64,000 nucleotides of DNA from a virus: the UHGV virus genome UHGV-0060833, one strand, 5' to 3'. The position numbers and the translations under genes are program-made. The notes under the pieces were generated by a model. That model searched no databases. It saw only the letters and a program-made list of their open reading frames with translations, and had not been told where the DNA came from. Shown here piece after piece: positions 11,103 through 51,700 of the stretch (position 1 is its first letter; the number at the start of each line of letters is the position of its first letter).

Positions 11103-11642
11103 CTACCACCAACTGCTAGCTTTCTTCTCTCTAGCTTTTCCTTCGCTTTGCAGTAAATCTTTACTTCCTGTAGAAATATTTCTATTTGCATCAGCCTCAG
11201 ACTGAATTACATCTGTCTTAGCTGCTCTCTCCTTCAACTCCTGCTCTATAAAATCGTTTTCTCGCTGGACACGAGCCGCTTTTGCTTGCAGTTCGAGTTT
11301 CATGCTTTCGAGTTGCAGCTTGCGAAGCTCATCCTCATAAGCTTGATCTCGCTTCTTGTCATTTGCTAGCTCGGCTTCTCGTTTCGCTCTACGTTCATTT
11401 TCTGCAGCAACACGCTGTTTTTCGCGTGCAGCAGCGGCAGATGCTGCTTTTTCTCTTCTAATACGTTCAGCTTGTGCTTGTTGGCGAATAAGTTCTTTTC
11501 TGGCATCCTCAGCTTGCTGCTCTTTAGCTCGCCCTTCATTTTCCGCTTGAGCAATAGCAGCAATTTGACTTTGCAACGAGTTAGCCAAGGCAGTGCCTAC
11601 ACTAAACGTAGAAAAGATTAGAAATAAAATAATTTTATTCAT
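11103..11642 (-). CDS. Secreted coiled-coil protein (signal peptide plus Ala/Glu/Arg/Lys-rich helix)
   Basis: 179 aa; N-terminus MNKIILFLIFSTFSVGTALA resembles a signal peptide; rest is highly charged and helical; AT-rich codon usage. Confidence 0.55.
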   Translation of the reverse strand: MNKIILFLIFSTFSVGTALANSLQSQIAAIAQAENEGRAKEQQAEDARKELIRQQAQAERIRREKAASAAAAREKQRVAAENERRAKREAELANDKKRDQAYEDELRKLQLESMKLELQAKAARVQRENDFIEQELKERAAKTDVIQSEADANRNISTGSKDLLQSEGKAREKKASSWW

Positions 11643-11645
11643 AAA

Positions 11646-12167
11646 TTATTTCTTTTCTGGACAAGTAGCATTTGGCTGAATTCGAGTTTCATTATCTTTA
11701 GTTGAAATAAGCACAGCAAGCCCCGTTGTAAACTGGCATGCTTTACCAACTTGAGTTGAAGTGAACACCTTAGTTCCTTCTTTATAAGTCAGTGAAACAC
11801 CTTCAACAATTGTTTTATCACTAACCAAAGAACCAGCCGCTGCACCAAGAGCCGCACCACCAGTACCGCCAGCTACAGCACCCAGTGTCGATGTGCCTTT
11901 AACATTATAACCGGCAACGCCCCCAGCAACAGCTCCCAGTACCGCACCAAATGTCTGTGCCGCTTCTTTATTAGCTTTATTATCAACTTTCACTTTAGCT
12001 GGAAGCACAGAGATAATATTGACTGTCTTTGTTTCCTGCTTCGAATTCAATTGAGCGGTATCATAAACATCGGCAGCATAATCAGCACCGCTAGATTGAC
12101 ACCCAGAAAGAAGAATTGCAGATACAACAAGAGCGCATAAAGTATACTTTTTAGACATAAGAATCAT
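11646..12167 (-). CDS. Lipoprotein with glycine-zipper segments
   Basis: 173 aa; lipobox LLSGC; GAVLGAVAGGVAG / GAVAGGTGGAALGAAAG glycine-zipper stretches; 3-nt gap to the downstream gene. Confidence 0.55.
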   Translation of the reverse strand: MILMSKKYTLCALVVSAILLSGCQSSGADYAADVYDTAQLNSKQETKTVNIISVLPAKVKVDNKANKEAAQTFGAVLGAVAGGVAGYNVKGTSTLGAVAGGTGGAALGAAAGSLVSDKTIVEGVSLTYKEGTKVFTSTQVGKACQFTTGLAVLISTKDNETRIQPNATCPEKK

Positions 12168-12448: not shown

Positions 12449-12465
12449 TCTGCTCTAATAAATTT
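12449..12465 (+). promoter_or_regulatory. C1 repressor operator-like site (immunity-I region, Op51-like)
   Basis: tctgctctaataaattt matches ATTGCTCTAATAAATTT at 15/17; lies upstream of the c4/icd/ant region. Confidence 0.65.
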
Positions 12466-12644
12466 GTATTTTTAAGTCGCGAATGCTATCTTTTTGCATC
12501 ATATTGACCTTTTAATCGTTCAGGCTTATAGTTTCGCCGTCGTAGCAAATTCTGCGACCGGGTTTAGCAGCCTGAATACTTACGCGGACAACCGCAGATT
12601 TCCGATATTGCGGTATTTTTGTGTCCGTAAACCACGTTACGCCC

Positions 12645-12725
12645 GAATTATGGTGGGGCGTGATGGGGAGGCTTCGGCCTGCTGGTTTCGTAAGTGCCAG
12701 TCTGCTAACCCCGTCACGTCCTGCC
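12645..12725 (+). ncRNA. c4: c4-like antisense repressor RNA (approximate bounds)
   Basis: Non-coding stretch upstream of icd with a UUCG-loop hairpin (gaggcttcggcctg). Motif ctgctaaccc (12693-12703) is complementary to gtttagcag at 12563-12571 and 12733-12741; cggcct (12673-12678) is complementary to the icd ribosome-binding region aggccg (~12766). Confidence 0.4.
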
Positions 12726-12777
12726 ACCTGTTTAGCAGCGGGTCGCAGGTTGTTTATCAACTTACGAGGCCGTAACT

Positions 12778-12999
12778 ATGGTTAATGCCAATCCTTGCGC
12801 ACGCCAAGAATTCATCTGGCGTTTCTATTCCTGCAAAAAACACCACTATCACTTCGTCATCGCAGCAACAGAAGACGAAGCACGCTCTCAATTGCCTGAT
12901 GGCCCCTGCATTTTTACTGCCCGTTTTTCAACTAACTCGCGCAATTCACTTAGTTACTGGAACCTCCCCTTCTCTGCCGACGTTCAGGGGGTTTTATGA
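12778..12999 (+). CDS. icd: Icd-like small protein
   Basis: 73-aa ORF immediately upstream of and overlapping (ATGA) the antirepressor gene; matches the P1 icd-ant arrangement. Confidence 0.7.
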   Translation: MVNANPCARQEFIWRFYSCKKHHYHFVIAATEDEARSQLPDGPCIFTARFSTNSRNSLSYWNLPFSADVQGVL

Positions 13000-14039
13000 A
13001 AAAACCTCTCGTCACCCGTAATGACATAGCCGAAGCGATCGCCCTGCATACTGCCTGTATGCCGACACGGGAGATCCCCGGCGCAATTGCCAACTATTTC
13101 ATGATAACCAGACGTTTTTATACCCGAACAGATAAGGCTGTGATCAACAGGCTACTGATAGCCGAGATCAGGGATTATTTGATTGAACAAGGACGTCTAC
13201 GTTACGCAACGGTGGCAGCAGAAATGAGAAAGGAGGCACATAGAATGACCAGTAATAATTTGAATGTTAAAAAACCAGCATCTGTTGCTTCAGCTACGCC
13301 ATCACCAGCTGTGAATGTTATCTCCAACACTGGAGACACAATCGACAGCCAGACGCTGTTAAAGATGGTCAATGAAGCGCGTAAGTTATGTGGGGAACCA
13401 GAGGTTCGGAACAACAAATTCATCAAAAAAATACTCGACGAATTAGAAGGTGAGGACGGTTACACAAAAAGTGCAACCGTGCCGCCAGGTGGCGGTACGC
13501 CTATGGTTGTCATAACCATGACCTACAAACAAGCCCTGCGAGTCGCCGCGCGCGAGTCAAAAGCAGTCCGCCGTTCGCTGATCGACAAACTGGAAGAATT
13601 GCAGCAGGCAAACTCCCCTGCCCCATCGATCCCCCAGACATTACCAGAAGCCCTACGCCTGGCTGCCGAGTTAGCAGAACAGAAAATGCAGTTGGAACAA
13701 CAGCTGGTGGCCGCAGCCCCTAAAGTCGATTTTGCCGACCGGGTATCAGTGGCCAATGGAATCCTGATCGGGAACTTTGCAAAGGTCGTTGGACTTAAGC
13801 AAAACGCCCTTTTCTCATGGTTGCGCCAGAACGGCATTCTCATGGCTTTTGGTGCGCGCAAAAACGTACCGCGCCAACAGTACATCAACGCCGGGTATTT
13901 CACAGTGAAAGAAGTGGTGCTGGATGATGAAAATGGCTACCAGATACGGCTGACGCCCCAATTAACGGGTAAAGGCCAGCAGTGGTTAACTCGCAAGCTA
14001 CTTGATGCTGGTTTGTTAAAACCAGTAGCAATAGGTTAA
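12996..14039 (+). CDS. ant1: Antirepressor Ant1 (an in-frame Ant2 start may lie inside)
   Basis: 347 aa; C-terminal ~135 aa is clearly homologous to the KilA C-terminus (PQTLPEALRLAAELAEQK...GKGQQWL..LLDAG). Confidence 0.75.
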   Translation: MKKPLVTRNDIAEAIALHTACMPTREIPGAIANYFMITRRFYTRTDKAVINRLLIAEIRDYLIEQGRLRYATVAAEMRKEAHRMTSNNLNVKKPASVASATPSPAVNVISNTGDTIDSQTLLKMVNEARKLCGEPEVRNNKFIKKILDELEGEDGYTKSATVPPGGGTPMVVITMTYKQALRVAARESKAVRRSLIDKLEELQQANSPAPSIPQTLPEALRLAAELAEQKMQLEQQLVAAAPKVDFADRVSVANGILIGNFAKVVGLKQNALFSWLRQNGILMAFGARKNVPRQQYINAGYFTVKEVVLDDENGYQIRLTPQLTGKGQQWLTRKLLDAGLLKPVAIG

Positions 14040-27497: not shown

Positions 27498-27830
27498 TTA
27501 GTTACCTCTGATAGCGCGGTTGTAATCATTAACGTTGCGATTCTTCCTGTTAATCCCCATCAGCATCGTTTCTGTATCGAGGATATACGCTGGCAGATCA
27601 TCAAAATATTCACTGCTAAACTCTGGCATCCTGCACATAAATGCACTTTTGGGGGCAGGGTGGTTAACCTTTGTCGGCGTCGGCGTTAAATTCGGTGATC
27701 GACTGCCGGAGCAACCGCTGAGTGTCAGCAGGAATGCGCTGGCGAACATTACCCGCCGCAACCAGTTGTTTCTGAACTTCAGCTTTTCGTTCCATTTGCC
27801 TGTCAGCATATTTGGCTTGTTCTGATTCAT
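27498..27830 (-). CDS. o-spanin-like outer-membrane lipoprotein
   Basis: Lipobox LTLSGC and Pro-rich segment PNLTPTPTKVNHPAPK; starts inside the upstream gene in another frame (start may be the internal Met at 27749). Confidence 0.45.
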   Translation of the reverse strand: MNQNKPNMLTGKWNEKLKFRNNWLRRVMFASAFLLTLSGCSGSRSPNLTPTPTKVNHPAPKSAFMCRMPEFSSEYFDDLPAYILDTETMLMGINRKNRNVNDYNRAIRGN

Positions 27831-47932: not shown

Positions 47933-48439
47933 TTGAGTATTTTCAATAAACACGCACACCAGGAACGTCCGTATATCGTCATAGTCGATATTGATGGAAC
48001 AATATCAGAGGCAACTGAAGACAGACTGCATTTGCTTCCGCCACCAGGTAAAGGTGCATTAACAAAGGACTGGAACGAGTTTAATCTCGCCTGTGACACC
48101 GATACTCCCATCACTCCAGTTATTGATATGGTGCGCCAGTTATTTAACGTTTACACGGTCTGGTTTGTAACCGGGCGCTGTGAGATCGCAAGGGATAAAA
48201 CACGAGCTTGGCTGCGGAAATACGTAACAAACGGGGCTGAGCCTTTGCTATCTATGCGTCCTGCCACCGATGACAGAAATGACGGCCCAGCAAAGATTGA
48301 TCTCCTTAAGAAAATTGGTCTAAGTAAAATCGCGTTCGCGCTGGAAGATAAGATTGAAGTGGCGCGTGTTTTCAGGAGTCACGGCGTACTTACGTTAATG
48401 GTCAGGGAGTATGAAAACGCGCTTCTCCATCAACAATAA
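47933..48439 (+). CDS. HAD-superfamily phosphatase-like protein
   Basis: TTG start after gaggag; IVDIDGT (DxDGT) nucleophile motif; 168 aa. Confidence 0.55.
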   Translation: MSIFNKHAHQERPYIVIVDIDGTISEATEDRLHLLPPPGKGALTKDWNEFNLACDTDTPITPVIDMVRQLFNVYTVWFVTGRCEIARDKTRAWLRKYVTNGAEPLLSMRPATDDRNDGPAKIDLLKKIGLSKIAFALEDKIEVARVFRSHGVLTLMVREYENALLHQQ

Positions 48440-48703: not shown

Positions 48704-51700
48704 CTATATTTTTCCGCCTACCCCTTTAAACTTCTCAATAAACGAGACGATTTTCTGGAAAACTGCCTGTTTTTTCGTTTTATATTGCGGATTCAACGGA
48801 CTAAGTTTTGGTAATGTTTCGTTTAATTCTGTGCCATTTTCGGTGGCGTATTCGCGTTTTAAAGACGTGCGAATATAGCGTTTTGCTGCTTCTTCATTGA
48901 GATTTTCTTCTTTTATCAATGCTTCTGCCTCACGTTGCTGTTCGCGTTGAGCAAACGTAAAGAATGCGTCAATGATGCTGGCTTTGTCCGGTAAGTCATC
49001 CAGGTTCGTTTGCTGAATAAAGTCGATCACCAGGCCCTCTTTAGCACGGTTCCCCAGGCTTGAACGAATTAAGCGTTTGACCTCTTCGATCATTTCGCCT
49101 TTGCCTTTATTTTGTCTGTTGTGTTCGAAAATCAGTCCAAGGATATAATCCAGGTTTATTTCCTGAGACTTCAACAAATCGACCTCAAAAACTACGTCAT
49201 CCCAGTCAGTGGTTGATTTATCTTTTTTCTCAGCTTCTTTCTCACGGCGCTGCCAGTCACGAATATCGTTATAGGCAGAACGATAATCCTGAATCTTGCG
49301 TTCAGCAGGGAGACGAATCATTTGCAATTCAGCGAACTTTTCATCATCCACATAATGTTCTGCTTTGAATTTTTCTACCGCAACAGGATCGCTAAGATCG
49401 ATTTGTTGCAGGGCTTTCAGCGTGGCAAATTCATCATAGTTTTGCAGGATGTTCTCGGCACGCAGGTATTCACCAAACAGTTTAACGAAGTCTTTCTTCT
49501 CTTTTTCACTTTCAATACTGGCAGGGTCAGGGAACCGTTGTTCCAGTTCTGAAACTATTGCCATAAAGCCGCGCTTAGCTTCACCAGTGGCAGCATCAGT
49601 AAAGCCTTCCATATACTCTGCATAACTCTTTTCTAACACCACATTTTTGGTATTTTTATCACCAAACAGCGTTATGGCATCAATGGTTGAGCGTTCCAGA
49701 TCCCGGAAAGTGACGATGTTACCGAAGGTTTTAGTAGCGTCATAAATGCGGTTTGTGCGGGAGAATGCCTGCATCAGGCCGTGAAAACGCAAGTTTTTAT
49801 CGACGAATAGCGTGTTCAATGTTGGAGCGTCGAAGCCGGTTAAAAACATCCCAACGACAATTAACAGATCGATATCCTGATTTTTAACCCGTTGGGCTAA
49901 ATCACGATAGTAGTTCTGAAAACCGTTACTGTCGGTGCTGAAGTTAGTTTTAAAATAGCTGTTATACTCACGAATTGCAGCGTCAAGAAACTCTTTAGCA
50001 CTGCTGTCCATTGCGCTGGTATCAAAAGTTTCATCGGAAATTTCACCAATGGCATTTTGTTCTTCATTGGCGGCAAAGGAGAAGATTGTTGCAACACGCA
50101 GCGGTTTATAGGTAGCCGATTTATTAGCTGCTTCCTCTTGTAACCGTTTAAACGTCGCGTAATAGGCTTTCGCGGCATCCACGCTACTCACTGCCAGCAT
50201 GGCATTAAAGCCTTTGGAACCTGGGAAAGTACGGTGGGTCTTCTGGCGGAAGTTATTCAGAATATATTGCGTAATTTCCTGTATACGCATGGGATGAAGA
50301 AACGCCTGCTGATTTTCAGCCGCACTCAGTTTTTTCTCGTCAGTTTCTGTCTCTAAAGACTTAAACTGTGGCCGCACATCGTTGTAGTCCACCTTGAATT
50401 TGAGCACTTTTTCGTCACGAATCGCATCGGTAATTACATACGAATGCAATTCACGACCAAATACGCTGGCGGTTGTTTCTGAGCCTAAGGCGTTTTCCGG
50501 GAAAATAGGGGTGCCGGTAAAACCAAACTGATAATAGCGTTTGAATTTCTTCTTCAGGTTTTTCTGCGCTTCTCCAAACTGGCTGCGGTGGCATTCATCA
50601 AATATAAACACCACTTGCTGATTATATACAGGCAGGTCGCTTTCTGCTTTCATCAGGTTATTGAGTTTCTGAATAGTAGTGACGATAATTTTGTTATCGT
50701 CCTTATCCAGATTTCGTTTAAGGCCTGCGGTATTTTCCGAGCCGTTGACGCTGTCTGGCGAAAAACGCTGATATTCCTTCATGGTCTGGTAATCGAGGTC
50801 TTTCCTGTCGACCACGAAGAAGACTTTATCAATAAAGTCCAGCTCTGTTGCCAGACGCGCGGCTTTAAAGCTGGTCAGGGTTTTACCGGAACCCGTGGTG
50901 TGCCAGATATACCCACCGCTTTCCGGTTTTGACCAGTTCTTCGCTGTAAAGGAGCTCTTAATTTTCCACAGAATGCGCTCGGTGGCAGCAATCTGGTACG
51001 GTCGCATCACCAGTAGCGTCTGACTACTGTCAAAAACGCTGTAGTTCACCAGAACATTCAGCAGAGTATGTTTCTGGAAAAAGGTGGCGGTAAAGTCTTT
51101 GAGGTCTTTAATCAGCGTGTTGTCTGATTTCGCCCAATTCATGGTGAAGTCAAAACTGTTTTTATCGCGCTTTGTGGTGTTGGCAAAGTAACGGGTATCG
51201 GTGCCGTTAGAAATGACAAACAGTTGCAGATACTTAAACAGGGAATTTTCGCTGTTAAAACTCTCTTTGCTGTAACGATGTATCTGGTTGAAGGCCTCAC
51301 GAATCGCTACACCGCGTTTTTTCAATTCAATTTGTACCAGCGGCAGGCCATTGACCAGAATGGTGACATCGTAGCGATTGGCGTGAGAGCCTGCCTGTTC
51401 AAACTGCTGGATAATCTGCACTTTATTGCGCATGAGATTCTTTTTATCTATCAAATAGATGTTCTCAAGACGCCCGTCATCAAAAATAAAGTCGCAAATA
51501 TAATCGATATGGATTTTACGGGTCTTATCCAGAATACCATCACTCGGGTTGTCCAGATACTGCTCCGTGAAACGCCGCCACTCGCTGTCATTAAACACCA
51601 CACCATTGAGGTTCTGAAGCTGTTCCCGAACATTGGCCAGCATCGCTGACTGTGATTTTACGGATATAAATTCATAGCCCTGATTTCGCAGGTCCTGAAT

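Follow-up and report, generated by a model that had tools for sequence, protein, structure and literature searches.

The closest described systems are the c4 RNAs of the phages P1 and P7. The P1 c4 antisense RNA was reportedly characterised by Citron and Schuster in 1990 and 1992. P4 CI RNA resembles it in being a small immunity RNA that RNase P excises from the leader of its own target operon, with short complementary sites on the same transcript, but its sequence family is unrelated and it acts by premature transcription termination rather than primarily by occlusion of a ribosome-binding site. In the GenBank records of P1 (AF234172) and P7 (AF503408) the order of elements is C1 operator, two promoters, a1, b1, the 77-nt c4, a2, b2, icd and ant1/ant2. 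In both phages, c4 is cut by RNase P from a longer transcript at GGU to give an RNA of ~77 nt (PMC5320573, PMC2190699). The b′ loop of this RNA blocks part of the ribosome-binding site, and a′, which binds a sequence upstream, adds specificity (PMC5320573), and a 4-nt difference between P1 and P7 suffices to prevent cross-reaction (PMC5320573, PMC2190699). The outcome is repression of Ant1/Ant2 antirepressor synthesis; the antirepressor otherwise inactivates C1 (PMC8546580, PMC8198154).

We analysed a stretch of 64,000 nucleotides from the virus genome UHGV-0060833 (hereafter the window), for which a preliminary description had proposed a c4-type antisense RNA upstream of icd, at about 12645-12725. 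A scan of the whole window against Rfam yielded a full-length match to C4 (RF01695) at 12646-12731 on the + strand, scoring 70.8 bits against a gathering score of 45 (E = 8.7e-12). Alignment with P1 c4, which the same description had suggested as a check, was extended to a three-way alignment with P7; the annotated P1 and P7 sites transfer to the window unambiguously, column for column, and c4 falls at 12652-12728. Both the type of RNA and its approximate position were thus borne out.

The 600 nt around c4 share 98.5% identity with Salmonella phage SJ46, 95.5% with P7 and 93.7% with P1, and several E. coli plasmids, NZ_MN510446, NZ_AP027786 and AP027478 among them, match at 100%. A 275-nt core (12520-12794) is present in 537 of 5426 complete E. 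coli genomes, nearly all on plasmids, and 125 E. coli records match it at 99% or better. Because of these identities and plasmid matches, the window is, as judged from its sequence, a P1/P7-like plasmid prophage with c4 lying within its immI (secondary immunity) region. The elements of the operon are as follows.

12449-12465 (+), C1 repressor operator, homologue of Op51/Oc4, TCTGCTCTAATAAATTT; placed by alignment to the annotated operators of P1 (L001 1499-1515) and P7 (L002 1549-1565), and the same sequence as in P7
12463-12492 (+), promoter, homologue of P1 P2c4 (former P51a), with the -35 at 12463-12469 and the -10, TATCTT, at 12487-12492; placed by alignment to the annotated P1 promoter
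12504-12532 (+), promoter, homologue of P1 P1c4 (former P51b), TTGACC, 17-nt spacer, TATAGT; consensus scan 10/12 and alignment to the annotated P1 promoter
12526-12578 (+), c4-a1b1 leader motif, which presents the upstream targets; Rfam RF03163, 55.3 bits against a gathering score of 46.7, E = 2.9e-11
12652-12728 (+), mature c4 antisense RNA, 77 nt; homology to the annotated c4 misc_RNA of P1 and P7, within the Rfam span 12646-12731
12778-12999 (+), icd, 73 aa, the first regulated gene; from the open reading frame list, 96% identity to P1 Icd
12996-14039 (+), ant1/ant2 antirepressor, its start overlapping the icd stop; 93% identity to P1 Ant1, Pfam ANT/KilAC domain at E = 1.2e-30

The C1 operator and promoters therefore stand 5′ of c4, and icd-ant1/2 stand 3′ of it. 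The consensus promoter scan missed the P2c4-homologous promoter at 12463-12492. The ANT/KilAC domain also occurs in kilA, the gene next after ant1. Taken together, the region very probably represents the 5′ portion of an immI operon in a P1/P7-like plasmid prophage, with a c4 antisense RNA repressing icd-ant. This confidence is based on the family match, the fold, the accessibility of a′ and b′, the complementarities, the covariation and the operon context established in this analysis.

Immediately 5′ of immI the window carries, on the - strand, homologues of P7 upf50.0 (DUF5384; 11103-11642) and of P7 upf50.5 (11646-12167), the latter a lipoprotein whose weak resemblance to TraT stays under the Pfam cut-off; in P1 this place is taken by the simABC superimmunity genes. 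Three tRNA genes are found on the + strand at 33493-33565, 33571-33643 and 35078-35150 (Rfam tRNA, 64.7-72.9 bits), which fits P1-like phages, since these bring tRNAs of their own. An Icd 97% identical to that of the window is encoded on a 2.9-kb contig assigned to a ‘Bacillota bacterium’ metagenome-assembled genome (JAFAFU010000019.1; L125), which is most likely mis-binned enterobacterial phage-plasmid DNA.

As an RNA, c4 of the window is a textbook antisense RNA in its usual operon and is already known, through the Rfam family, annotated orthologues and identical plasmid copies. The RefSeq E. coli records with a 100% identical region list only an Icd-like protein under the match, and annotation of c4 and its targets appears to be lacking from RefSeq E. 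coli plasmids, hundreds of which carry them. The 77-nt RNA has a predicted minimum free energy of -45.7 kcal/mol (z = -5.2; none of 200 shuffles is equally stable), and the minimum free energy and centroid structures agree. A 17-bp closing stem surrounds two hairpins, and the minimum free energy fold leaves only a′ and the b′ loop unpaired, at predicted opening energies of 0.08 kcal/mol for a′ and 0.48 kcal/mol for b′. The 5′ processing context, AUUAU followed by GGUGGGG, is the same as in P1 and P7; by homology, RNase P would generate the 5′ end of a 77-nt RNA beginning with GGU. The parts of the fold are these.

12669-12680 (+), hairpin 1, AGGC-UUCG-GCCU; from the fold, invariant in 51 sequences, and containing the cggcct singled out in the preliminary description
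12681-12701 (+), hairpin 2, a 6-bp stem (12681-12686 with 12696-12701) and a 9-nt loop, UUCGUAAGU; from the fold
12689-12695 (+), b′ recognition element, CGUAAGU, in the hairpin 2 loop; from the fold, covaries with b1 and b2
12702-12708 (+), a′ recognition element, CUGCUAA, the unpaired 7-nt joint between hairpin 2 and the closing stem; from the fold, covaries with a1 and a2

Each recognition element has an exact 7-nt complement on either side of c4, at 12564-12570, 12578-12584, 12732-12738 and 12760-12766, the last of them at the icd ribosome-binding site.

12564-12570 (+), a1 target, UUAGCAG (P7 type); complement of a′, aligns with the annotated P1 a1
12578-12584 (+), b1 target, ACUUACG (D6 type); complement of b′, aligns with the annotated P1 b1
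12732-12738 (+), a2 target, UUAGCAG, just 3′ of c4; complement of a′, P1 alignment, covariation
12760-12769 (+), b2 target, ACUUACG (12760-12766(7)), merging into the icd Shine-Dalgarno GAGG (12766-12769); complement of b′, P1 alignment, covariation

The first of the two elements in the preliminary description, ctgctaaccc, is real and corresponds to a′, with targets a1 and a2 on the two sides; its position is 12702-12711 and not 12693-12703. The targets named for it, GTTTAGCAG, do occur on both sides of c4, at 12562-12570 and 12730-12738 instead of 12563-12571 and 12733-12741. Contiguous Watson-Crick complementarity of a′ is limited to 7 nt (CUGCUAA with UUAGCAG), and the CCC of ctgctaaccc stays unpaired in this register because the targets have an extra U. 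The window holds three copies of GTTTAGCAG, against 0.64 expected, two of which flank c4. The third, at 27613-27621 on the - strand, was rejected as an extra target; neither ACTTACG nor another b site is near it, and 0.64 copies are expected by chance.

Concerning the second element, the preliminary description had proposed cggcct, in the UUCG hairpin, as complementary to the icd ribosome-binding region. The hexamer is indeed there, at 12675-12680 instead of 12673-12678; AGGCCG, its complement, occupies 12767-12772, beside the icd start. Overall, the coordinates given there were shifted by 1-9 nt, and the complementarity of CGTAAGT (12689-12695) with ACTTACG at 12578-12584 and 12760-12766 was missed. 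Interaction prediction, which had also been put forward as a check, returned -10.0 kcal/mol for b′/b2 and -9.9 kcal/mol for the CGGCCU duplex, whose opening cost within c4 is ~3.0 kcal/mol. The CGGCCU pairing is thus energetically compatible with the second element, and since energetics did not discriminate, comparative evidence was used instead.

To this end, 120 related loci were collected from IMG/VR with hairpin 1 as the anchor, giving 115 usable copies and, for counting covariation, 51 distinct sequences (alignment A3). In these 51 relatives, the upstream pairings (a1/a′ with b1/b′) and the downstream pairings (a′/a2 with b′/b2) are each formed in 100% of 714 cells, while control registers slid by 1-3 columns pair in 27-51% of cells. 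Two-sided changes were seen at 8 of the 14 a/b pairs: the a1/a′ pairing holds in 51/51 sequences with two positions altered on both sides, and six of the seven b1/b′ pairs covary. The covariation score is 0.593, compared with 0.214 in shuffles, and none of 500 shuffles reaches 0.593. The three phage-type alleles illustrate the pattern, as the hairpin 2 loop reads CACUAAC in P1, CACAAUC in P7 and CGUAAGU in the window, b1 reads GUUAGUG, GAUUGUG and ACUUACG, respectively, and b2 changes to match.

CGGCCU and AGGCCG, on the other hand, are invariant on both sides in the 51 relatives, so that there is no covariation and this set gives the pairing no support. The hexamer is identical in P1, P7 and the window while the hairpin 2 loop differs. 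With 32 occurrences of AGGCCG in the window and 25.5 expected, the match alone is no better than chance. Two loci with the same hairpin 1 and a different ribosome-binding site, L063 and L105, have lost AGGCCG, yet L105 keeps both a and b matched and L063 keeps a. In the P1 annotation, b2 is at the ribosome-binding site, and its complement is the hairpin 2 loop, not CGGCCU. A scan based on Icd, with one genome per species, gave four loci, three of them near-identical to the window, and was unusable for covariation of hairpin 1.

More distant c4 loci were gathered by a DNA-pattern scan followed by a fold filter; the majority of raw hits to the pattern, being chance matches, were dropped, leaving 24 distinct loci. 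Members of the C4 family (RF01695) from other phages and Proteobacteria share with the window the closing stem, a tetraloop hairpin 1, a variable-loop hairpin 2, the 7-nt joint and matching upstream and downstream targets; distant members, as found by this search pattern, differ in having CUGCCAA-type a′ elements and other hairpin 1 sequences. The complement of a′ is present upstream in 24/24 of these loci and just downstream in 17/24, and a complement of at least 6 nt to the hairpin 2 loop lies 28-53 nt downstream in 21/24. The hairpin 1 hexamer equivalent to CGGCCU, by comparison, has a downstream complement in only one of the 24, whose hairpin 1 sequences are different. We conclude from the three-way covariation and the a/b annotation of the P1 record that b′ (12689-12695), rather than cggcct, is the element that covers the icd ribosome-binding region; a role for CGGCCU as the second element is very improbable.

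In the distant c4 RNAs (24 loci, L128-L247 subset), the b′ loops often include CCU or UCC motifs resembling an anti-Shine-Dalgarno sequence, with complements 28-53 nt downstream of c4; these loops support occlusion of the ribosome-binding site as a family-wide feature. The divergent L063 locus (positions 478-752 of IMG/VR contig 3300010935_000281) has a third a type, with a′ CGACUAA and UUAGUCG at both a1 and a2, a longer hairpin 2 loop and a different downstream gene start.

The same comparisons bear on whether the c4 repressor might be a protein. Open reading frames 54-93 aa long run across the region (12494-12775, 93 aa, +; 12621-12785, 54 aa, +; 12512-12760, 82 aa, -), and in the early P1 GenBank record X15639 c4 is entered as a CDS. 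Each of these candidate frames nevertheless contains single-base indels between close relatives, for example CCGT-AAACC versus CCGTAAAACC at ~12628-12631, that would shift the frame. What varies are precisely the positions that maintain RNA-RNA complementarity between three separate sites. The region also scores as structured RNA under the covariance model, and c4 is entered as an RNA in the current records of P1 and P7. Because of the frame-shifting indels and the RNA-compensatory variation we rejected a protein-coding c4, to which we assign almost no probability.

With all sequence features needed by the P1/P7 model present and conserved in the window, a working scheme for the antisense RNA can be proposed. 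Transcription would start at the promoters beside the C1 operator and yield a precursor with a1, b1, c4, a2, b2, icd and ant in this order. Host RNase P would, by homology, cut before the GGU at 12652, releasing the 77-nt c4 (12652-12728), which is predicted to fold into the long closing stem and two hairpins with b′, in the hairpin 2 loop, and a′, in the 7-nt joint, left free. Acting in trans, a′ would pair with a2 and b′ with b2 on the icd-ant mRNA, and the b′/b2 helix would extend into the icd Shine-Dalgarno and block icd translation. Since ant expression depends on icd translation, antirepressor synthesis would be off and C1 repressor would stay active, maintaining lysogeny and conferring immunity to phages with matching a2/b2. 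In this scheme RNase P processing, trans action, translational coupling and the immunity phenotype are taken from the P1/P7 literature, and repression of icd/ant in trans and superinfection immunity, carried over from P1/P7 genetics, would apply to the window by analogy.

The predicted b′/b2 helix can extend to 10 bp, including two G-U pairs, between the loop sequence UUUCGUAAGU and ACUUACGAGG, with the predicted energy of -10.0 kcal/mol given above, and therefore covers the icd Shine-Dalgarno directly. The predicted fold of the icd 5′ UTR partly sequesters b2, at an opening cost of ~6-9 kcal/mol, so simple thermodynamics alone is no guarantee of c4 binding. A predicted hairpin in this UTR, AGGUUG-UUUAU-CAACUU (12747-12763), overlaps the first 4 nt of b2, whereas the corresponding hairpin of P1 and P7 (AGGUU-GUUA-AACCU) stops before b2. 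The flanking sequence here varies in step with b types starting with ACTT (the window, D6 and L052).

The six sites could also act mainly in cis, with a1/b1 pairing to a′/b′, or a′/b′ to a2/b2, within one precursor as a leader switch. All six lie on one transcript within 210 nt, and a1/b1, whose role as targets is putative even in the P1 annotation, are conserved in distant loci too (a1 in 24/24). P1/P7 genetics, however, describe c4 as trans-acting and as the determinant of heteroimmunity (PMC8546580, PMC5320573), and both the high stability of the c4 fold and its RNase-P-type 5′ end hint at an RNA that is released. Predominantly cis action is accordingly unlikely in our view, although cis pairing is a partial and non-exclusive rival that could coexist with the trans action of a released c4.

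Comparison of the a and b elements sets the window apart from each of its named relatives. P7 c4 (AF503408, misc_RNA 51057-51133) shares with the window the operon order, a′/a1/a2, the C1 operator and both hairpin stems, all identical, at the 95.5% identity over 600 nt noted above; its b differs, with CACAAUC and GAUUGUG targets in place of CGUAAGU and ACUUACG, that is, at 5 of 6 variable positions. P1 c4 (AF234172, misc_RNA 48343-48419) has the same 77-nt architecture and all annotated site positions, at 93.7% identity, but both its a (CUGUCAA) and its b (CACUAAC) differ. The D6 c4 region (MF356679) shares b′, b1 and b2 (ACUUACG type) and the flank TATCAACTTACG in the icd 5′ UTR; its b is thus identical to that of the window, whereas its a is of the P1 type (GACAG, versus AGCAG), and the antirepressor encoded downstream is another protein, described as HK97 Roi-like. 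The allele of the window combines a P7-type a with a D6-type b, and its predicted specificity is therefore unlike that of P1, P7 or D6. Predicted b′/b2 duplexes fit such discrimination, with ~-10 kcal/mol for cognate pairs, -0.9 to -7 kcal/mol for non-cognate pairs, and -0.9 to -1.7 kcal/mol for the window type against P7 and P1 partners.

Among the 115 loci there are two main a types, AGCAG (P7) and GACAG (P1), plus AGUCG in the one divergent locus; the b types number at least seven (GATTGTG, ACTTACG, GTTAGTG, ACGAATG, GTACATG, ACTTGTG and GTTCAAG). Of the 14 ways to combine a main a type with one of these seven b types, 12 are represented. At all loci but L063, the three copies of an element agree with one another; in L063, a is matched and b only approximately so. 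The combination found in the window is the second commonest in the IMG/VR sample (17/115) and is common in sequenced E. coli plasmids. Since the sites are interleaved in the order a1-b1-b′-a′-a2-b2, a swap of b with a kept needs at least two replaced segments (b1 through b′, and b2), and this need for several coordinated exchanges to re-assort a against b would imply strong selection for matched sets.

These population-level matched a/b alleles are the sole mildly new aspect of the analysis. A search of the searchable literature, outside which the key D6 and P1 genome papers fell, returned no description of the combinatorial a/b pattern, which may already be known. It is conceivable, though we place it somewhat below an even chance, that c4 of P1-like plasmid prophages is a natural two-part specificity code, in which case the allele of the window would define an immI group distinct from those of P1, P7 and D6.

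For the window itself, the analysis confirms a P1/P7-like phage-plasmid with an intact immI module and fixes the coordinates of c4 and its targets. Many P1-like phage-plasmids carry resistance genes, and the a/b alleles could serve as a simple sequence predictor of mutual immunity among them.
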